Source: Bacilli bacterium
Lineage (GTDB): Bacteria > Bacillota_I > Bacilli_A > RFN20 > CAG-826
DNA length: 52,346 nucleotides
Direction: 5' to 3'
Assembly: GCA_024696885.1 (NCBI GenBank)
Contig: JAILGI010000044.1
Span: forward strand, 1-52,346
Below are positions 39,351-52,346 of this stretch, piece after piece; within the stretch, counting starts at the first letter, position 1, and each line of letters begins with the position of its first letter. The notes beneath the pieces are model-generated. The model was not told the origin of the DNA, made no database searches, and saw only the letters and a program-made list of their open reading frames with translations. The translations under genes and the position numbers were made by a program.

Positions 39351-39395
39351 GTTTTGGTTAACATAATATTTGAATACATTATATAATAATGGCGT

Positions 39396-40589
39396 ATGAG
39401 TAAAGTGATAGTTCACATCGACTTAAACGCCTTTTTTGTTCGAGCGGAGGAAATAAAAGAACCCTCTTTAGAGAATAAACCTGTTGCTATTGGTAAAGAA
39501 GGAAGAGGGGGAATTGTTTCGACTTGCTCATATGAAGCGAGGAAATTTGGTGTCCATTCTGGTATGCCAATGTTTCAAGCTAAACAACTCTGTCCAAATC
39601 TTATCGTCCTTCCTGGCGATTATCGCTTTTATCGAGCACTCTCACGCACGTTTTTCGCATTCATGAGGAATTATACCCCACTAGTGGAAATCGCCTCTGT
39701 AGACGAGTGTTATGCGGATTTTACCGAGGTAATCAAAGGAAAGAAGGATGTGGAATCCTATTTTAGGAGGTTGCAATCCGATCTATTTGCTAAAACAGGT
39801 TTAAAGTGTTCCATCGGTGTGGGACCTAATAAGTTTTTAGCAAAAATGGGTAGTGATTATAAAAAACCTCTGGGTTTAACCATCATCCGCAAAAAAGATG
39901 TATCGACAATTTTATATCCATTATCTTTAGATAAACTATATGGTGTTGGAAAGCGTACCCTTCCTAAACTACAAGCGATGGGCATTTCTACGATTGGAGA
40001 ACTCGCGAAAAGATTATTTGAAGACGATAGTGAAACGCTTAAAGTTTTAGGCAAGTTTTCTATCACTTTAACAGAATGGCTTAAAGGCAATGGTGACGAT
40101 GAAATAATTGTTGAAGAATTCGATCCCAAATCTATCGGACATTCCACAACGCTGAAAAACGACACGAATGATTTTGAAGATATAAAACCTATCTATCGTG
40201 AACTATGTAACGAAATTGCTTACCAAGCAAAAAAAGAAAAGAAGATGGGCCACACCGTCCAAATAGTCATTAAGGAATCAGATGGTAATTTTACTACACA
40301 CAATAAATCAGTGACTTTAGATAGACCGATTAATGACGCAAATTTGATATACAAATATGCGACAAACTTATACGAAAAATACTTTCTTGGCATCACAGTG
40401 AGACTTGTTGGTGTTACTTTGCAAAACCTTATATCCCAAAAAGAAGCGGTTATCCAAATGAGTTTGTTTAATTACGAAGAACACGAATCTGAGAACAAGA
40501 CAAAACTGCTTATTAATGAAATTAACCGTGGTTTAGATAAACCTCTTTTGATGCGCGCTTCCGATGTGAAAAAGGAGAAAAAGAAATGA
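39396..40589 (+). CDS. dinB: DNA polymerase IV
   Basis: HIDLNAFF, SVDECY, and the C-terminal clamp-binding-type motif QMSLF (40455..40469). Confidence 0.9.
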   Translation: MSKVIVHIDLNAFFVRAEEIKEPSLENKPVAIGKEGRGGIVSTCSYEARKFGVHSGMPMFQAKQLCPNLIVLPGDYRFYRALSRTFFAFMRNYTPLVEIASVDECYADFTEVIKGKKDVESYFRRLQSDLFAKTGLKCSIGVGPNKFLAKMGSDYKKPLGLTIIRKKDVSTILYPLSLDKLYGVGKRTLPKLQAMGISTIGELAKRLFEDDSETLKVLGKFSITLTEWLKGNGDDEIIVEEFDPKSIGHSTTLKNDTNDFEDIKPIYRELCNEIAYQAKKEKKMGHTVQIVIKESDGNFTTHNKSVTLDRPINDANLIYKYATNLYEKYFLGITVRLVGVTLQNLISQKEAVIQMSLFNYEEHESENKTKLLINEINRGLDKPLLMRASDVKKEKKK

Positions 40590-41467
40590 ATATAGAAGAT
40601 GGCTTAGAACTATTTGCCCAATATATGACTGTGGAAAAAGGCTTATCAATGCAAACTCTTTCCTCATACATGAGTGATCTCCGCTTATTCTTTGAATATT
40701 ATTCCGATAAAAAGGAAATATCGGATTTGATGGCCACTGATTTGGAGGAATACCTTAACTATTTGAATGGAATCGGAAGGAACATATCAACGTGTCTAAG
40801 AAAATTTTCTTCCATCCGTTCTTTTTATCTTTTTCTAAAGAAAGAAGGATATTCCGATATCGAACTTGAAGACATCGAAATGCCTAAAAAGCCGATGACA
40901 TTTCCTAACTGCCTCTCTATTGAAGAAGTCGATGAACTGTTAGATATGCCTGATATTGAAAAACCAGAAGGCTTAAGAGATAAGGCGATGCTGGAGTTAA
41001 TGTACGCTAGCGGACTACGCGTTAGTGAACTTTTATCATTAGAAAGACGAAAGATTAACCTTGAAAAAGGAATCGTGAAAATATTTGGTAAAGGGGCAAA
41101 GGAAAGAAAGGTCCCGGTTGGCGAATTTGCCATGGAATATATCAAGATGTATATCGATGGACCGAGAAGAAAGAATCCAGGAAAAGATAGCAAATATCTA
41201 TTTTTAAATAGATATGGAAAGCCATTATCCCGTCAATACTTCTTCATGCAAATCAAAAAGTACGCAGACATGGCGGGAATCGAGGTTTCTATTTCTCCTC
41301 ACACCCTTAGACATTGCTTCGCCACGCACCTATTAGAAAACGGGGCACAACTTAGAGCGGTACAGGAAATGCTTGGCCACACAAACATTGCAACAACCCA
41401 AATTTATACGCATATATCCACTAAGCGCATTATCAGTGCGTATGATTTGTATATGAAAAAGAAATAA
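40586..41467 (+). CDS. xerD: tyrosine recombinase XerD (RipX-like)
   Basis: RHCFATHLLENGAQLRAVQEMLGHTNIATTQIYTH (R-H-R-Y catalytic set). Adjacent to deoB, as ripX-drm is in B. subtilis. Confidence 0.8.
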   Translation: MNIEDGLELFAQYMTVEKGLSMQTLSSYMSDLRLFFEYYSDKKEISDLMATDLEEYLNYLNGIGRNISTCLRKFSSIRSFYLFLKKEGYSDIELEDIEMPKKPMTFPNCLSIEEVDELLDMPDIEKPEGLRDKAMLELMYASGLRVSELLSLERRKINLEKGIVKIFGKGAKERKVPVGEFAMEYIKMYIDGPRRKNPGKDSKYLFLNRYGKPLSRQYFFMQIKKYADMAGIEVSISPHTLRHCFATHLLENGAQLRAVQEMLGHTNIATTQIYTHISTKRIISAYDLYMKKK

Positions 41468-42867: not shown

Positions 42868-43518
42868 ATGAGTACAAGAGAAAATAGTGGAATCGACTAT
42901 CAAAACTTCAAGAAATATAACAGGATGAGAAGTTCCGACGAAGAAGAAAGAAAAAGACAATTAGCCTTGGAAAGAAGGAAAGGCCAATTCGATATGATAT
43001 CTTGGCTTTTAAGACAAAATGACTATGTAAGATATGCGGAAACACATAAATTGAGATATAAAGCCTTAGCAGGTGAAATATATGAGATTGATTTCGGCAT
43101 CAATGTTAACGCTGAATTGTCTTATCGGCATTACGGACTTGTCCTAGCAGACTCAGAAGAAAGCAATCCATTAGTCATGGTCTGTCCGTTGAAGACCAAT
43201 TTTAAAGGTGCCCACCCTGCGAGCGACGTAAATCTTGGTTATATTGAGGAATTGAACAGTGATCATGAATCTTTGGCAATCATTAATCAAATTAGAATGG
43301 TGGACAAAATTAGAATTTACCGTAGAACCACAATTGGAAAATATGTCAAACCAAAATACACCTTGTCAGATGTTGAGCAAGATGATTTTGAGGATGAATA
43401 TGAAGGTGAGACTTATACGCCTTATAGGTTAGAAGCTAAGAAATTCGAAATAGTGAAAACCGCCATCATGAACTACATTAAGTTTGGCAAAATAGATCCG
43501 GAGGAGAAAAATTACTAG
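42868..43518 (+). CDS. long solitary MazF/PemK-fold protein (putative endoribonuclease toxin-like) with N- and C-terminal extensions
   Basis: Core aa 69-151: GEIYEIDFG..AELSYRHYGLVLA...LVMVCPLKT...SLAIINQIRMVDKIRI. This parallels MazF/EndoA signatures GDVY.ADL..GSE..G.RPVLV, AAIT and EQIRTIDKQRL. RBS AGGAG. Confidence 0.6.
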   Translation: MSTRENSGIDYQNFKKYNRMRSSDEEERKRQLALERRKGQFDMISWLLRQNDYVRYAETHKLRYKALAGEIYEIDFGINVNAELSYRHYGLVLADSEESNPLVMVCPLKTNFKGAHPASDVNLGYIEELNSDHESLAIINQIRMVDKIRIYRRTTIGKYVKPKYTLSDVEQDDFEDEYEGETYTPYRLEAKKFEIVKTAIMNYIKFGKIDPEEKNY

Positions 43519-43532
43519 TAGATTTCTAGTAG
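43516..43532 (+). repeat. 11-bp-phased TAGTAG array, locus D (2 units)
   Basis: TAGTAGATTTC TAGTAGATTTT. The first TAG is the stop codon of the MazF-like gene. Confidence 0.8.
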
Positions 43533-43550
43533 ATTTTATCCAACTAAAGT

Positions 43551-43591
43551 ATGTGGAAAAGTCAACTAATTCACGGTTGATAAATCCACAT
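43551..43591 (+). terminator. extended hairpin, possible terminator of the MazF-like gene
   Basis: ATGTGGA..TCAAC-TAATTCACG-GTTGA..TCCACAT, followed by ATTTTAGGTTTT. Confidence 0.35.
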
Positions 43592-43647
43592 ATTTTAGGT
43601 TTTAGCAAATATAATGTTTTGATATATTCTTATCTTTTTTATATTTT

Positions 43648-43675
43648 GGTTAACATAACGGAAATTATACGAAGT
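43648..43675 (-). other. dif: candidate dif site (XerC/XerD chromosome dimer resolution site)
   Basis: The minus strand reads ACTTCGTATAA-TTTCCG-TTATGTTAACC. B. subtilis dif (from memory) is ACTTCCTAGAA-TATATA-TTATGTAAACT. Arms match 9/11 and 9/11; the central region differs. The site lies at the + to - gene-orientation switch. Confidence 0.6.
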
Positions 43676-43723
43676 TACTATTATTTGACTCTTTTACACA
43701 ATTATGGCGGTGGATGAAGGTAA

Positions 43724-43750
43724 AGAAAAAGAGACTTGTTACAGCCTCTT
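43724..43750 (-). terminator. rho-independent terminator after nadD/yqeK
   Basis: The minus strand reads AAGAGGCT-GTAACA-AGTCTCTT (one G-U pair), then TTTTCTTT. Confidence 0.6.
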
Positions 43751-43770
43751 GTGATAATGATTCTTTTAAG

Positions 43771-44844
43771 TTAGTCTAGATAAAATTGGAAACAAGAATA
43801 GGTTAAACGATTATTAATGTCTCCTTTGCTCTCTTCTAGGAACTCTTTATTAGCTTTGAGCACTATTTTGAACCCTTCATCGATGTCTTTCATCATGGCA
43901 TCAACGTATTCTGTAGAGTCATAGCCTCTTGTTGGCTCAATTTTATCTGCGGCATAGATGATTTTACCTAGGGTGCACATGTTATCCTTGCCCGTCGCGT
44001 GATATTTGATGGCCTCTAAGATGTCTTGGTCCACTATTTTAAACTCTTCTTTGGCAATGTATTCACTAGCGAATTGATGATATGCGAATCTTGGAAGGTC
44101 TAAATCTTCCTTATAAGCCTTCATCATGATTGGCTTTTGGTCTATTTCTTTTCCAATATCATGTAATAAACCGGCAATATATGCTCTTTCAGGATGTTCT
44201 AAACCATGCTTTTTAGCGATGTCATAAGCTAGTGAAGCCACACTAATACAATGATTAAGGCGAAAATCTTTTAAGTATTCACGGATTTTAGGCATGAAAT
44301 AAAGATTATTGGAGACAATATAGTCAATTACTTGTTTGTTCAAATATAAGGCCTTTAAACTGCGTATTTCAGTGGAACTAATATCTTGATATTCCCCCAC
44401 TACTTCTTGCATTTTAAACTTTTGAATATTTCCTTTATCTAAATCGTAATTTGGACGTGGGAAAAAGATAATATGCACCTTTTTAGCGATTTCATCGGCT
44501 TGCTTCCATTTATGGAAGGCGTTCACATGGTCTGTTCCAATTAAGTAAAAGAAAGTATCGTTTGGATACTTATTTATAAAGTAATTTACTGTATCTATGG
44601 AGTAGTTTTGTTCTTCGTCCTTTTCGACTTCAAATAAATCTATAGAAAAGCGAGGATAATCTTTGATCGATAATTCGATCATCTTAATTTTATGTTCAAT
44701 AGGAGCGGAATCATTTTTCCAAACCGATATTTTGCTTGGCAAAAAAATGACATTAGCGTCAAATTGTTTGCTTGCCGCTTCCGCCATCGAGATATGTCCT
44801 AGATGAATAGGATCGAAAGATCCACCAAAGAGAATTTTGTTCAT
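43771..44844 (-). CDS. nadD: fusion of nicotinate-nucleotide adenylyltransferase NadD and HD-domain YqeK (Ap4A hydrolase family)
   Basis: N-terminal GGSFDPIHLGH. The C-terminal half carries the HD motif HCISVA...AGLLHDIGKE. Confidence 0.85.
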   Translation of the reverse strand: MNKILFGGSFDPIHLGHISMAEAASKQFDANVIFLPSKISVWKNDSAPIEHKIKMIELSIKDYPRFSIDLFEVEKDEEQNYSIDTVNYFINKYPNDTFFYLIGTDHVNAFHKWKQADEIAKKVHIIFFPRPNYDLDKGNIQKFKMQEVVGEYQDISSTEIRSLKALYLNKQVIDYIVSNNLYFMPKIREYLKDFRLNHCISVASLAYDIAKKHGLEHPERAYIAGLLHDIGKEIDQKPIMMKAYKEDLDLPRFAYHQFASEYIAKEEFKIVDQDILEAIKYHATGKDNMCTLGKIIYAADKIEPTRGYDSTEYVDAMMKDIDEGFKIVLKANKEFLEESKGDINNRLTYSCFQFYLD

Positions 44845-46970: not shown

Positions 46971-49694
46971 TTAATCTAAATCATCAAAGAGGTTCATCTG
47001 TTCGAATGTGCCTGCTTTGTCTTTATTCTTTTCTTCCTTTTTCTTTTCCTTTTTCTCCACTACAGGAGCAGGATTTTCTTCAACAGGAGACACCGCTTCT
47101 TCCACTTCGGCTTCTTCTTGAACCGTTTCGTTTTCTAAGAGTTCAACTTCTTCATTAGCGGATTCTTCTGCTTCTTCTTCATCTGGATGAACGACTTGTT
47201 GAACTAGATATGATTTAAGCGCTTTGTCAATTCTTTCTAAGTCAGTATCATAAGCAGCGTTAACGAATGTTCTTGCTGGTATAGAGATGTTCTTCTTTGC
47301 GTATTTACCAGCGTCTGTAAGACTTAAATCTTCTAAAAGAAGATTAAATACACTTTGATCACTTAAACATAAGTTTGCGGTAAATGGTTTAGTCTTGTCC
47401 TTAACTTTTAAAGCAGCAACGATTTTATGGATATCACCTTTAAAGCAAGGCATTAACAATTGTACTTTTCCTAAACGGTTCGTGCGTGGGAACCTATTAT
47501 TATCGCTTACGCGTTCGTGCGCTTTATCGGTAATGACCACGAATTTGCTTTTTTCGCCCTCTGTGAACGCTAAAAGGGCGGCCAATGAGTTCTTACCTAA
47601 CTGTGCAATAGATTTCACGCCTCCGGCCTTACTTCCGAGAATTGTTAAATCATTTTCATTAAACAAGGAAGCGTTACCATTACTTGTTATTACAAGTAAA
47701 TCACAATTGCCTGTTAAGATTTGCACACCGACAACTTCGTCTCCATTTAAGAGTTTCATACATCTTAATGGACGTGAGCGTTTGGAGAAAACTAAAGATG
47801 AAACGAGCATTCTCTTAATTTGACCGAACTTTGTTAAGATACCAAAGCAAATATCGTTTCTAAAATCAGAAACCGCGAATCCTTTGATAATCTTTTCGCC
47901 TGGTCCCAAGGTCACAAATGTGTTGAGGTGAGTACCTTCATCCTTCCATTTGTTATCGGTTAATTTATGGACTGGAATGCAGACATAATTACCTAAATTT
48001 GTGAAAGAAAGGAGATAGTCAGTTGTAAAACAACTGCCGTAAGTAACTAAGGTGTCACCGCTCTTAATACCTGGAAGCGCATTTTCACCACTTCCACGAT
48101 AAGACTTAACACTGGATCTCTTTAAATAGCCATCGCGAGTTAAGGAGATATAACATTCTTCTTTGGCGATTAATTGACGTTTATCAATTGGGCCAACTTC
48201 GCCTTTTTCTTCAATTGTTGTTCTTCTTTCATCGCCGTATTTATCAGCAATTGCTCTTAGATCTTTAACGATGACGCGATTAAGCTTATTAGGATCTTCG
48301 ATAATTGTTTTTAAAGTTTCAATATCGGCTTCTAATTGTTTTTTCTCCTTAAGGAGAATTTCTTCATCAGTGTGACTTAACTTGTATAAAGGCATGGTCA
48401 CGATAGCTTCTGCTTGTTCATTAGAGAAACCAAAGCGTTTCATCAAATTGACTTTACTATCGGCTTTGTCTTTACTCTTCTTGATAATGTCAACGACTTC
48501 GTTAATATTTAACGAAGCGGTAATCAAACCATCGACAATATGTAATCTTTCTGAGAATTTTGCTAAGTCAAATTTGCTCTTTCTTAAGACGACATCTACT
48601 TGGTGAGCAATATAGGAATCGACATAGTCGATTAATGATAATGTTTTTGGTGTTCCGTCCACGATTGCGACGATATTTGCCGAATAACTAGTCAATAATG
48701 GCGTTTTGTTCATCAAATATTTGAGTAAAAGATCCGCTTTTGCGTCTTTTTTACAATCGATAACGATTCTAATACCCTTCCAATCGGATTCATCACGGAT
48801 TTCAATCATACCGGAAACCGATTTTGCGTGGATAATTTTGTCTATTTCATAGACAAGTTGTGATTTAACCACTTTATATGGGATTTCTGTAATGATAATT
48901 TGAATGATGTCTTTTTGAGGGACAATTTCGGTTCTTGCCGCGACTTCAATACGGCCTCTACCGGTTAAATAGATGTTTTTTAAACCTTCTGAACGATAGA
49001 TGATGCCACCACCAGGGAAGTCTGGGCCTTGGACAAATTGGAGTAAATCCTCCACTGTTGCGTTTTTATGGTTGATGCGATAAATAATAGCATCAATAAG
49101 TTCTCTTAAATTGTGAGGTGGTATTTCAGTTGCTAAAGCAACTGCGATACCTTCTGTACCATTGACAAATAAGTTAGGAAAACGTGCTGGTAAGACAGTT
49201 GGCTCTAATTCGGTATCATCGAAGTTAAGTTGCATATCAACGGTCTTTTTATCGATGTCTCGAATTAATTCATTACTTAATTCGGCAAGGCGAGATTCGG
49301 TATAACGATAGGCGGCTGGTTGGTCACCATCGATAGAACCATTGTTGCCTTGGAAATTGATTAAAGGATAGCGAACCTTCCAATCTTGGCTCATACGAGC
49401 CAAAGCTTCATAAATTGATGTATCACCATGTGGGTGGAAAGTACCCATCACAGCACCAACTGTATGAGCACATTTTCTTGTTGGCTTGTTAAAAGTGTTT
49501 CCACTTTTGTACATGGAGAAAATGATTCTTCTTTGGACTGGTTTTAATCCATCACGAACATCTGGGATAGCACGATCTTGAATGACATACTTGGCATATG
49601 TGGCATAGCGATCAGACATCACATTTTCTAATGGTTCAAGAGAAATATTCTCTTGGATGATTTCTTCGACTACTTTAGCGTTCTTTTTTGCCAT
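46971..49694 (-). CDS. parC: DNA topoisomerase IV subunit A (GyrA/ParC family) with a long acidic C-terminal tail
   Basis: Active-site context AAYRYTESRLA. ParC is preferred over GyrA because of the plsY-parE-parC synteny known from Bacillus and Staphylococcus. 907 aa. Confidence 0.75.
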   Translation of the reverse strand: MAKKNAKVVEEIIQENISLEPLENVMSDRYATYAKYVIQDRAIPDVRDGLKPVQRRIIFSMYKSGNTFNKPTRKCAHTVGAVMGTFHPHGDTSIYEALARMSQDWKVRYPLINFQGNNGSIDGDQPAAYRYTESRLAELSNELIRDIDKKTVDMQLNFDDTELEPTVLPARFPNLFVNGTEGIAVALATEIPPHNLRELIDAIIYRINHKNATVEDLLQFVQGPDFPGGGIIYRSEGLKNIYLTGRGRIEVAARTEIVPQKDIIQIIITEIPYKVVKSQLVYEIDKIIHAKSVSGMIEIRDESDWKGIRIVIDCKKDAKADLLLKYLMNKTPLLTSYSANIVAIVDGTPKTLSLIDYVDSYIAHQVDVVLRKSKFDLAKFSERLHIVDGLITASLNINEVVDIIKKSKDKADSKVNLMKRFGFSNEQAEAIVTMPLYKLSHTDEEILLKEKKQLEADIETLKTIIEDPNKLNRVIVKDLRAIADKYGDERRTTIEEKGEVGPIDKRQLIAKEECYISLTRDGYLKRSSVKSYRGSGENALPGIKSGDTLVTYGSCFTTDYLLSFTNLGNYVCIPVHKLTDNKWKDEGTHLNTFVTLGPGEKIIKGFAVSDFRNDICFGILTKFGQIKRMLVSSLVFSKRSRPLRCMKLLNGDEVVGVQILTGNCDLLVITSNGNASLFNENDLTILGSKAGGVKSIAQLGKNSLAALLAFTEGEKSKFVVITDKAHERVSDNNRFPRTNRLGKVQLLMPCFKGDIHKIVAALKVKDKTKPFTANLCLSDQSVFNLLLEDLSLTDAGKYAKKNISIPARTFVNAAYDTDLERIDKALKSYLVQQVVHPDEEEAEESANEEVELLENETVQEEAEVEEAVSPVEENPAPVVEKKEKKKEEKNKDKAGTFEQMNLFDDLD

Positions 49695-49695
49695 A

Positions 49696-51639
49696 CTATT
49701 TGACCTCCTTTAAGAAGGTGTCTACTTCGTTGAAGTCAACGTTTTCTTCAACCCATTTCTTTCTTGCTGTGGTGTCTTTGCCCATCAATGTTTGCACTCT
49801 TGATTCCGCTAATAAGGGGTCTTCGATGTCAACACGAATTAATAAACGAGAACGTGGATCCATGGTGGTTTCTTTAAGTTGAACAGCATCCATTTCACCA
49901 AGACCTTTATAACGGGAAACTTTATATCCAGCACCGATTTTCTTTTTACAAGCTTCTAAGCCTTCATCGTCCCAAGCGTACTCTTGTTTAATCTTATGGT
50001 TCTCTTCTTTATATATTCTATATAAAGGTGGAACAGCAATATAAACATTTCCGTTGGTGATGAGAGGTCTCATAAAGTGATAGAAAAATGTCAAAAGTAA
50101 GGTTTGAATATGAGCACCATCGGTATCAGCATCTGTCATGATGATGATTTTGCCGTAATGGATGTCTTCAATATTGAAAGTTTGGCCAAAACCCGCACCA
50201 ATGGTGTTAATAATGGTCGCAATTTCTTCATTTTTCATGACTGTGGAGATAGAAAGACCATCAGTATTTAATGGTTTACCTCTAAGAGGTAAAATGGCTT
50301 GATGTAATCTATCTCTACCCTTTTTAGCACTACCACCAGCGGAATCACCTTCTACGATGAATAATTCGTTTTTGAGGTAATCTTTGCTTTGGGCAGGTGT
50401 TAATTTATCAGAAAGAATGACCTCGTTTTTGACTTTTTTCACACTACGAGCATCATCTTTTGCTTTTCTTGCAGCGATTCTTGCAGCTTGAGAATCCAAG
50501 CATTTTTTAATAATGATTGTGGCGAGTTCCTTATTTTCGGTTAAATAATAAGTAAACTTATTGTAAATGAAATTTTGCACAATGTAGGTTGCTTCTTGGG
50601 TACCTAATTTGCCCTTTGTTTGACCTTCGAATTCAAGTAAAGCTTCTGGGATTTTAAGGGAAATTATGGCGGTGAGACCTTCTCTAACATCATTTCCGTC
50701 TAATTTTTTACCATGCAAAATATTGTATGTTTCACCGAAGTCATTGACCGCTCTTGTGATACCTGTTCTAAAGCCAGTTTCATGTGTTCCACCTTCTTTA
50801 GTTCTCACGTTATTGACGTAAGAAAGGATGGTTTCGTTGTAGTCTTCAGAGCAGTATTGCAAAGCAATCTCCATATCAATTCCGGTGTTTTCATCAGTTT
50901 CTGAAAAGGCGGTAATTGGGGTCAATTCCTTCTTATTTACGTTGATATGTTGGACATATTCCACTAGTCCATTTTCACAGTAAAACTCTTGGTTATCACC
51001 GGTTCTTTCGTCGATTAAAACGAACATCACACCCTTCATTAAGAAGGCGCTTTCTTGGAGGTGACCAGCGATAGTTTCACGCTTAAAATCGACCGTAGAA
51101 AAGATGGTAGGATCAGGCTTAAAACGGACTAAAGTACCATGCCTTTTGGTACCCCCTAATTGCTCTAATGGAGTGACTAGATGACCACCATTTTCAAAGC
51201 GGATATGATTAACTACACCGTTTAAATAAACGGTGACGTCGCACCAAAGTGATAAAGCATTGGTTACAGAAGCACCAACACCATGAAGGCCAGCAGCGGA
51301 CTTATAAACCGCACTATTGAACTTGCCACCAGCATGCAATTCTGTGAAGACAATTTCTACAGCGGGACGGCCTGTTTCTTTATTGATTCCGCAGGGAATT
51401 CCTCTTCCTTCATCAAGGACAGAAACGGAACCATCTTTATGAATGGTGACAGTGATTTTATTACCAAATCCAGAGAGAGCTTCATCAACAGCGTTATCAA
51501 CAACTTCCCACACTAAATGATGCAAACCAGTTGCGTTTGTGGAACCGATATACATTGCTGGTCTTTTTCTCACACCTTCAAGGCCTTGAAGAATGTGAAT
51601 ATCATCAGCACCATAAGATAACTTTTCGTTAATCGCCAT
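49696..51639 (-). CDS. parE: DNA topoisomerase IV subunit B (GyrB/ParE family)
   Basis: GHKL ATPase (EVVDNAVDEA, GLHGVG), Toprim EGDSAGGSAK, DADTDGAHI; RBS GGAGGG. Confidence 0.75.
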   Translation of the reverse strand: MAINEKLSYGADDIHILQGLEGVRKRPAMYIGSTNATGLHHLVWEVVDNAVDEALSGFGNKITVTIHKDGSVSVLDEGRGIPCGINKETGRPAVEIVFTELHAGGKFNSAVYKSAAGLHGVGASVTNALSLWCDVTVYLNGVVNHIRFENGGHLVTPLEQLGGTKRHGTLVRFKPDPTIFSTVDFKRETIAGHLQESAFLMKGVMFVLIDERTGDNQEFYCENGLVEYVQHINVNKKELTPITAFSETDENTGIDMEIALQYCSEDYNETILSYVNNVRTKEGGTHETGFRTGITRAVNDFGETYNILHGKKLDGNDVREGLTAIISLKIPEALLEFEGQTKGKLGTQEATYIVQNFIYNKFTYYLTENKELATIIIKKCLDSQAARIAARKAKDDARSVKKVKNEVILSDKLTPAQSKDYLKNELFIVEGDSAGGSAKKGRDRLHQAILPLRGKPLNTDGLSISTVMKNEEIATIINTIGAGFGQTFNIEDIHYGKIIIMTDADTDGAHIQTLLLTFFYHFMRPLITNGNVYIAVPPLYRIYKEENHKIKQEYAWDDEGLEACKKKIGAGYKVSRYKGLGEMDAVQLKETTMDPRSRLLIRVDIEDPLLAESRVQTLMGKDTTARKKWVEENVDFNEVDTFLKEVK

Positions 51640-51737: not shown

Positions 51738-52346
51738 ATGAATATATTTTACAATATATTAAGCGCTCTCTTCTGTTTAATTTTAGGTTATTTTTTTGGT
51801 TCAATTCCAACGGCAGTTTGGATTGGTAAAGCCTTTTTCCATCGTGATCCAAGATTAGAAGGCAGCAAAAATGCTGGAGGTACAAATGCTGGTCGTTTGT
51901 TTGGCAAAAAGATCGGTGTTTTAGTCATCTTCCTCGACATGCTCAAACTCATTCTTCCAATGTATTTATGCTTTTTGATGTTTACATACATCAAATTTGG
52001 TAATTCTCCTTTATGCCCAAAACCAGAAGAATTTGATCAATTTGGCTTAAATTATCACTATATTGTCGGTTGGCCAGTGTATTGGTTAGCTGTCGTTGGT
52101 TGCGTTGTTGGCCATTGTTGGCCATTTTTTGCCTCCTTTAAAGGTGGCAAAGGTGTTTCCTGCTATATGGGCACCGTTTGTGCCTCTACTTGGATGCTTG
52201 GATTGATCCCTGGTTTAACCTATTTCTTGTTCTTGAAGATTACAAAAAAGGTCTCTTTAACAAGCATTATCGTCTCTATTTTAATCACTGTTGTCACCTG
52301 GGTTTGGATCATCTTATTCATGCTTGGAGTGATTCCAACAAACCTC
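51738..52346 (+). CDS. plsY: glycerol-3-phosphate acyltransferase PlsY (3' end outside the window)
   Basis: Not in the ORF track because it is open-ended. RBS AAGGAGG, then ATG 51738. Translation: MNIFYNILSALFCLILGYFFGSIPTAVWIGK...GSKNAGGTNAGR...HCWPFFASFKGGKGVS, which are PlsY signature motifs. Confidence 0.85.
   Translation, partial: MNIFYNILSALFCLILGYFFGSIPTAVWIGKAFFHRDPRLEGSKNAGGTNAGRLFGKKIGVLVIFLDMLKLILPMYLCFLMFTYIKFGNSPLCPKPEEFDQFGLNYHYIVGWPVYWLAVVGCVVGHCWPFFASFKGGKGVSCYMGTVCASTWMLGLIPGLTYFLFLKITKKVSLTSIIVSILITVVTWVWIILFMLGVIPTNL

Follow-up and report, generated by a model that had tools for sequence, protein, structure and literature searches.

The DNA analysed here, referred to as the window, is a stretch of 52,346 nucleotides that makes up a whole contig (C90) of a draft genome of 1.08 Mb, which is assembled into 97 contigs, is 86% complete and has a G+C content of 36%. 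On its minus strand, a 28-bp sequence resembling the Xer recombination site dif lies within a gap of 252 bp (43519..43770) between two convergent genes. Both had been pointed out in a preliminary description of this DNA, made from the sequence alone; the minus-strand 28-mer at 43648-43675 was re-read and matches, and the extent of the non-coding gap was confirmed. The locus has the following features:

39356..39366, minus strand: lone exact copy of the XerD arm, TTATGTTAACC, without a XerC arm alongside (1/11 positions); candidate XerD operator
39358..39387, plus strand: sigma-70-like promoter TTAACA-18-TATAAT, predicted by consensus match (11/12), ending 8 nt before the dinB ATG
39396..40589, plus strand: dinB (DNA polymerase IV), first gene of the dinB-xerD operon, overlapping the start of xerD by 4 nt
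40586..41467, plus strand: xerD, 293 aa, 2.2 kb from the dif site (TIGR02225 XerD, 320.1 bits, versus 284.6 for XerC)
42868..43518, plus strand: ORF left of the dif site, 216 aa, with a weak PemK/MazF-like domain (Pfam, 33 bits)
43648..43675, minus strand: predicted dif site, 28 bp, ACTTCGTATAA-TTTCCG-TTATGTTAACC; exact sequence, single copy in the assembly, conserved
43648..43658, minus strand: XerD-type arm TTATGTTAACC, 9/11 identical to the right arm of B. subtilis dif, its first 9 nt identical to the E. coli XerD arm
43659..43664, minus strand: central region TTTCCG, 6 bp, a spacer that varies among relatives
43665..43675, minus strand: XerC-type arm ACTTCGTATAA, clade consensus ACTTCG[C/T]ATAA, 9/11 identical to the left arm of B. 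subtilis dif
43729..43750, minus strand: intrinsic-terminator-like hairpin after nadD/yqeK
43771..44844, minus strand: nadD/yqeK fusion ORF right of the dif site, 357 aa (NF005519, 310 bits)
46971..51639, minus strand: parC and parE (topoisomerase IV; TIGR01061, TIGR01058), 3.3-8 kb from the dif site

The PemK/MazF-like ORF has homologues in the same slot in two relatives (G002 and G019), and is absent there in three others (G018, G012 and G033). This slot adjoining the site is variable, as relatives other than G002 and G019 hold different small ORFs in it. On the opposite side, NadD and the HD-domain protein YqeK are encoded in one ORF, and the fusion is kept in relatives. The terminator-like hairpin at 43729..43750 lies between this ORF and the 28-mer, and therefore the 28-mer is predicted to be downstream of the point at which nadD/yqeK transcription stops.

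The 28-mer has an 11-6-11 geometry with a partial inner dyad (ATAA / TTAT). It was compared with the dif sequences of B. subtilis (ACTTCCTAGAATATATATTATGTAAACT) and E. coli (GGTGCGCATAATGTATATTATGTTAAAT), both taken from Kono et al. 2011 (PMC3025954). It agrees with B. subtilis dif at 18 of the 22 arm positions, and the counts given in the preliminary description, 9 of 11 in each arm and the first 9 nt of the XerD arm shared with E. coli dif, are correct with respect to these references. For the base composition of the genome, 0.02 sites with at most 4 arm mismatches to B. subtilis dif would be expected by chance in the window, which upholds the earlier estimate that an 18/22 match is improbable in about 100 kb. 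The corresponding expectation for the assembly is 0.41, and hence the match to B. subtilis alone is unconvincing at genome scale, where this resemblance is weak evidence, suggestive and not decisive. The site is nevertheless the best B. subtilis-like match in the assembly, with 4 arm mismatches compared with 5 in the runner-up. The 28-mer occurs in one copy in the 97-contig assembly, so that the uniqueness proposed earlier holds for the assembled DNA, which represents 86% of the genome.

We accepted the 28-mer as a probable dif because each related genome carries one orthologous site with conserved arms, and not on the basis of the B. subtilis match alone. Forty relatives were searched for both arms separated by any spacer, with at most 3 mismatches, and the reversed pattern was used as a control. 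Exactly one two-arm match was found in 18 of the 24 genomes of the same family, while the reversed control pattern gave almost none at this limit of 3 arm mismatches. Relatives that are 90-99% complete yielded one match per genome, and those that are 97-99% complete carry only the orthologous site. Among the 0-mismatch matches listed for the whole order, most have the core TTCG[C/T]ATAA-N6-TTATGTNAA, at about one per genome. Additionally, public genomes were scanned with the XerD protein, which gave 80 loci, 61 of them from this lineage. Most of the 80 loci belong to metagenome-assembled genomes (MAGs) of rumen, horse faeces and gut that carry the labels Bacilli, Erysipelotrichaceae or Bacillales, and Candidatus Fiminaster equi (Bacilli incertae sedis) is among the sources. 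Of the 61 lineage loci, 51 have one dif site downstream of xerD, at a distance of 1.5-5.5 kb and on a constant strand.

The site is embedded in a conserved gene order, dxs-dinB-xerD-deoB on one side and nadD/yqeK-yhbY-yqeH-yqeG-parC-parE on the other, relative to which its orientation is fixed, the XerD arm always pointing toward the xerD side. When the relatives were aligned on the site, the arms appeared near-invariant, the spacers differed from genome to genome, and the flanks were unrelated. A set of 66 distinct sites gives an information content of 1.77 and 1.57 bits per position for the two arms, compared with 0.84 for the spacer and 0.33-0.41 for the flanks; the arm scores are somewhat inflated, as the sites were chosen by arm similarity, while their place and strand are fixed independently by synteny. 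In these 66 sites, positions 1-6 and 8-11 of the XerC-type arm are near-invariant, and TTATGT and AA are invariant in the XerD-type arm. Conserved arms combined with a drifting spacer and flanks are the pattern that would be expected of protein-binding arms around a free crossover region.

The central hexamer had been regarded in the preliminary description as atypical for a chromosomal dif on account of its G and C residues. The comparison with relatives contradicts that view: the 66 distinct clade sites contain 31 different hexamer spacers, and every one of the 66 includes G or C, with a mean of 1.9 such residues. A G/C-containing spacer is thus normal in this clade. The TTTCCG spacer itself recurs in G020, a relative of another genus. 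Its final G is rare, being found in 2 of the 66 distinct sites, with the consensus A in the other 64; G-ending spacers, such as TGTATG, also occur in another family of the order. The resolution of chromosome dimers joins identical sister copies of the site, and spacer homology therefore holds whatever the sequence.

The position of the site in the chromosome was assessed from nucleotide skew and gene orientation, which are correlated and do not represent independent signals, and from the distance to dnaA. In the window, the cumulative G-C curve peaks at 43819, which is 157 bp away from the centre of the 28-mer, with a weak skew of +0.05 to the left of it and -0.03 to the right. Left of the site, 34 of 35 ORFs of at least 80 aa are on the plus strand. 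The preliminary description had counted 42 of 43 coding sequences on that strand; the bias stands, and the exact figure does not, presumably because shorter coding sequences had been included. Its statement that the next six coding sequences to the right are on the minus strand was borne out by six consecutive minus-strand ORFs, after which plsY, at 51738, is on the plus strand.

Other short contigs of the assembly show many local changes in the sign of the skew that follow gene orientation. Consequently, the skew of these contigs was dropped as a test of the uniqueness of the terminus in the 97-contig draft, and the long contigs of relatives were used instead, since skew in short contigs is uninformative. 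We took 46-80 kb around the orthologous site from five relatives, in which the cumulative G-C maximum lies 105, 115, 378, 716 and 1568 bp from dif. In all five, the gene strand switches at dif, for example with strand ratios of 27:1 and then 3:33 in G018, and 31:0 and then 2:7 in G002. Skew and strand bias, which the preliminary description had proposed to plot over the whole chromosome, both switch at the site in the window and in the five relatives. The near-closed genome of the relative G018 (98% complete, about 1.0 Mb) provides a check that does not depend on skew: dif at 184.4 kb and dnaA at 713.9 kb are on one contig of 879 kb, separated by about 530 kb, which places dif about half a genome away from dnaA. 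As the skew is weak here and several short contigs switch locally, the terminus call rests mainly on the relatives. Taken together, these results support the location of the 28-mer at the replication terminus, where the two replichores meet.

The proteins that would act on such a site are encoded in the assembly. It contains exactly two tyrosine recombinases, one on C90 (xerD) and the other on contig C42, between topA and rpsB. The C90 protein is below the TIGR02225 cut-off of 329.6 bits and above that of PRK00283, and the C42 protein scores best as XerC (324 bits, versus 294 for XerD); both are 5-12 bits under the NCBIfam equivalog cut-offs, each matching its own model best. In full-length alignments of the two proteins with E. 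coli XerD (1A0P), the catalytic R, K, H-x-x-R, H and Y are intact. With the XerS model the recombinases gave only 115-117 bits, compared with its cut-off of 267, and the assembly holds no Cre-like third recombinase. The xerC-type gene follows topA, as does codV in B. subtilis. A single FtsK, with alpha, motor and gamma domains (PF01580, PF17854, PF09397), is encoded on contig C14. Domain models also agree with the preliminary assignment of xerD (40586..41467) and of the topoisomerase IV genes (46971..51639) to the neighbourhood of the site. The parE and parC genes are 3-8 kb from dif here and in 4 of 5 relatives examined, and 7-12 kb from it in G019. The decatenase genes and the dimer-resolution site are, as a matter of synteny, conserved close neighbours at the terminus.

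Motifs that might orient an FtsK/SpoIIIE-type translocase toward the site were also considered. Two known FtsK/SpoIIIE motifs, GGGNAGGG, which is the KOPS of E. coli, and GAGAAGGG, are essentially absent. In the window, GAAGAAG, the KOPS of L. lactis (PMC3384302), points toward dif in a ratio of 32:3 to the left of the site and 6:0 to its right, counts that include the coding-strand bias, by which purine-rich 7-mers are skewed in general. GAAGAAG has a stronger polarity than composition-matched 7-mers in the window (38:3 versus 330:149, Fisher p = 6e-4), again with the coding-strand bias included, and a slightly stronger one when six genomes are pooled (p = 0.013), but it is not the purine 7-mer with the greatest skew. 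When skewed k-mers were sought de novo, the words obtained were generic, rich in purines and explained by the coding strand. The polarity of GAAGAAG toward dif is suggestive only.

The single copy, the orthologues, the arm conservation, the skew, the distance to dnaA and the presence of XerC, XerD and FtsK agree with the preliminary reading of the site as dif at a probable terminus. We are highly confident that the 28-mer is the chromosomal dif of this uncultured small-genome Bacilli bacterium, of a gut or rumen lineage (Bacilli incertae sedis), at the place where the replichores meet. It is very probably a canonical XerCD-type dif, an ordinary housekeeping feature whose reaction can be predicted by homology. 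By analogy with E. coli and B. subtilis, XerC from C42 would bind the arm ACTTCGTATAA, assigned to it from the homology with the dif sites of these two species, and XerD, encoded 2.2 kb away, would bind the arm TTATGTTAACC. When recombination has dimerised sister chromosomes, FtsK at the septum would pair the two dif copies and activate XerD, and XerC and XerD would then swap strands across the 6-bp spacer, restoring monomers. The arm-to-protein assignment and the recombination reaction are what we infer from these homologies.

The preliminary description had offered as an alternative that the 28-mer is a pseudo-dif or the attachment scar of an IMEX, that is, a hybrid left by a Xer-integrated mobile element, with the true dif elsewhere. 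The variable ORF at 42868..43518 next to the site would fit such an origin, as would the second exact XerD arm located 4.3 kb away in direct orientation, and the unassembled 14% of the genome could hold a second site. Against it, every other 28-mer in the window has 7 or more arm mismatches, the second XerD arm is not accompanied by a XerC arm (1/11), and the genes dinB-xerD-deoB, which occupy the 4.3 kb separating the two XerD arms, are housekeeping genes in family-wide synteny. Moreover, relatives that are 97-99% complete have just the orthologous site, and the G/C spacer that had raised the suspicion is the rule in the clade. A scar recognised through the extra arm was rejected as well, since the sole extra XerD arm is a conserved promoter element. 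With flanks that are syntenic, spacers that contain G or C clade-wide and no second dif-like 28-mer in the window, we consider this alternative highly improbable. A chance resemblance in AT-rich intergenic DNA, devoid of function, would be compatible with the roughly 0.4 sites with at most 4 mismatches to the B. subtilis arms that are expected in such an assembly. It does not account for one orthologue per genome over dozens of genera, with invariant arms, unconserved flanks, and a fixed place and orientation, and its probability is negligible.

A real site that serves a single recombinase, in the style of XerS or XerH, or mainly the docking of XerD, instead of a two-recombinase XerCD dif, would be in line with the clade-wide proximity of xerD to the site (2.2 kb here), as in the XerS/difSL and XerH/difH modules, and with the lone XerD arm, which indicates that XerD-only sites exist in this genome. 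However, the arms are unlike each other in sequence and each has its own conservation, the geometry is 28 bp in an 11-6-11 arrangement and not that of the 31-bp difSL, and a XerC-type paralogue with intact catalytic residues is present in the classical topA-linked position. We therefore regard a single-recombinase site as very unlikely. A contamination by loxP or a vector was also rejected, given that only one half of the site matches and that the site is orthologous in many independent MAGs.

Compared with known systems, the two-recombinase dif favoured here is closest in outline to that of B. subtilis, with CodV (XerC) and RipX (XerD), and to the Firmicutes dif profile (PMC3025954). Apart from the 28-bp architecture and the 18 of 22 arm positions, the two have in common a single copy at the switch of GC skew, two paralogous recombinases and an FtsK/SpoIIIE-type translocase. 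They differ in the XerC arm (CCTAG in B. subtilis versus CG[C/T]AT in this clade), in the spacer (TATATA versus a G/C-containing spacer in every clade member) and in the extra XerD arm that the clade has on the promoter of the xerD operon. Whereas xerD genes are mostly near the origin (Kono et al. 2011, PMC3025954), those of the clade are 2-5 kb from dif. The E. coli dif/XerCD/FtsK system shares with the present one the XerD arm TTATGTTAA, the inner ATAA/TTAT dyad and the FtsK gamma domain, while the outer half of its XerC arm, GGTGCG, is unrelated to ACTTCG here. XerS/difSL of streptococci and lactococci (PMC1914069) and XerH/difH resemble the clade in the tight linkage of the recombinase gene to the site at the terminus, but they employ a single recombinase and a different site (31 bp in the case of difSL), in contrast to the two Xer paralogues and the classical 28-bp site found here. 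The departures from the textbook dif are thus the ACTTCG[C/T]ATAA arm, the G/C-containing spacers, and the tight linkage of xerD and parCE to dif. A likeness to loxP of phage P1 is treated as a curiosity: a run of 14 consecutive bases, TAACTTCGTATAAT, is common to the XerC half of the site (43663..43677, minus strand) and to a loxP arm with the start of its spacer; the other arm is unmatched, and the spacer has 8 bp in loxP and 6 bp here.

The only other copy of the XerD-arm 11-mer in the assembly is the lone arm at 39356..39366. It lies in the gap between dxs and dinB, 4.3 kb from dif and in the orientation of dif, and shares 15 nt with the dif copy. The -35 hexamer of the predicted dinB promoter is inside this arm. 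Related loci have a copy of the XerD arm with 0-1 mismatch a short distance upstream of dinB, always on the same strand; a strict count gave 37 of 52 such loci, and another scan about 45 of 57. The distance from the arm to the -10-like box ranges from about 8 to 18 nt across relatives. This varying distance, together with the conservation of the whole 11-mer, led us to reject the explanation that the lone arm is a mere -35 box. In 20 of the 36 loci with both elements, the lone arm is identical to the XerD arm of the dif of the same genome, compared with 13.4 +/- 2.4 for random pairing, the observed number being inflated by relatedness.

In B. subtilis, XerD-only dif-like sites at the terminus, termed XDS, unload Smc-ScpAB, according to passages in PMC11840125 and PMC10945525 that cite Karaboja et al. 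2021. The lone arm is similar to XDS in that only the XerD half is kept and in that it is near the terminus, but XDS form a scattered set, whereas the lone arm is one site with a fixed position at the xerD operon promoter. No ScpB (PF04079) was found among 41 genomes from the order and no SMC hinge among 24 from the family, while control genomes scored; the search with TIGR02168 was insensitive and uninformative on Smc. Within the order, a single ORF was positive for the hinge, and it encodes a divergent SMC-like ATPase instead of a canonical Smc. A divergent SMC-like ATPase of 1139 aa, with weak matches to TIGR02680 and the hinge, is encoded in 9 of 30 family genomes, this genome not being among them. 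The order may therefore lack canonical Smc-ScpAB, the known client of XDS, and the reading of the lone arm as an SMC-unloading site is weakened by the failure to find ScpB and the SMC hinge. Four loci of the scan, L080, L081, L084 and L086, have three to five extra exact XerD-arm 11-mers within 6 kb of dif, several of them inside the dxs and nadD coding regions, where about 1.5 copies per Mb would be expected; this suggests an XDS-like cluster around dif in these loci.

Given that neither ScpB nor the SMC hinge was found, we favour the autoregulation of dinB-xerD by XerD as the role of the lone arm. As a tentative proposal, for which we would put the chances at somewhat under even, XerD may repress its own gene and dinB in a sequence-specific manner by binding to the lone arm as an operator, so that free XerD would be titrated against the single target that it has in the chromosome. 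The literature searched yielded no description of autoregulation by XerD.

The dif site pins the replication terminus on contig C90, which helps to order and orient the contigs of fragmented MAGs. The clade consensus, ACTTCG[C/T]ATAA-N6-TTATGTTAAC[C/T], can be used to find the terminus, and mobile elements that exploit Xer, in uncultured gut and rumen Bacilli, and G/C-containing spacers prove to be normal in bona fide dif sites. The biology of dif itself is textbook knowledge, and more interest attaches to the lone XerD arm at the promoter of dinB-xerD. If this arm is truly an operator, XerD would gain a hitherto undescribed regulatory role, tied to a mutagenic polymerase.
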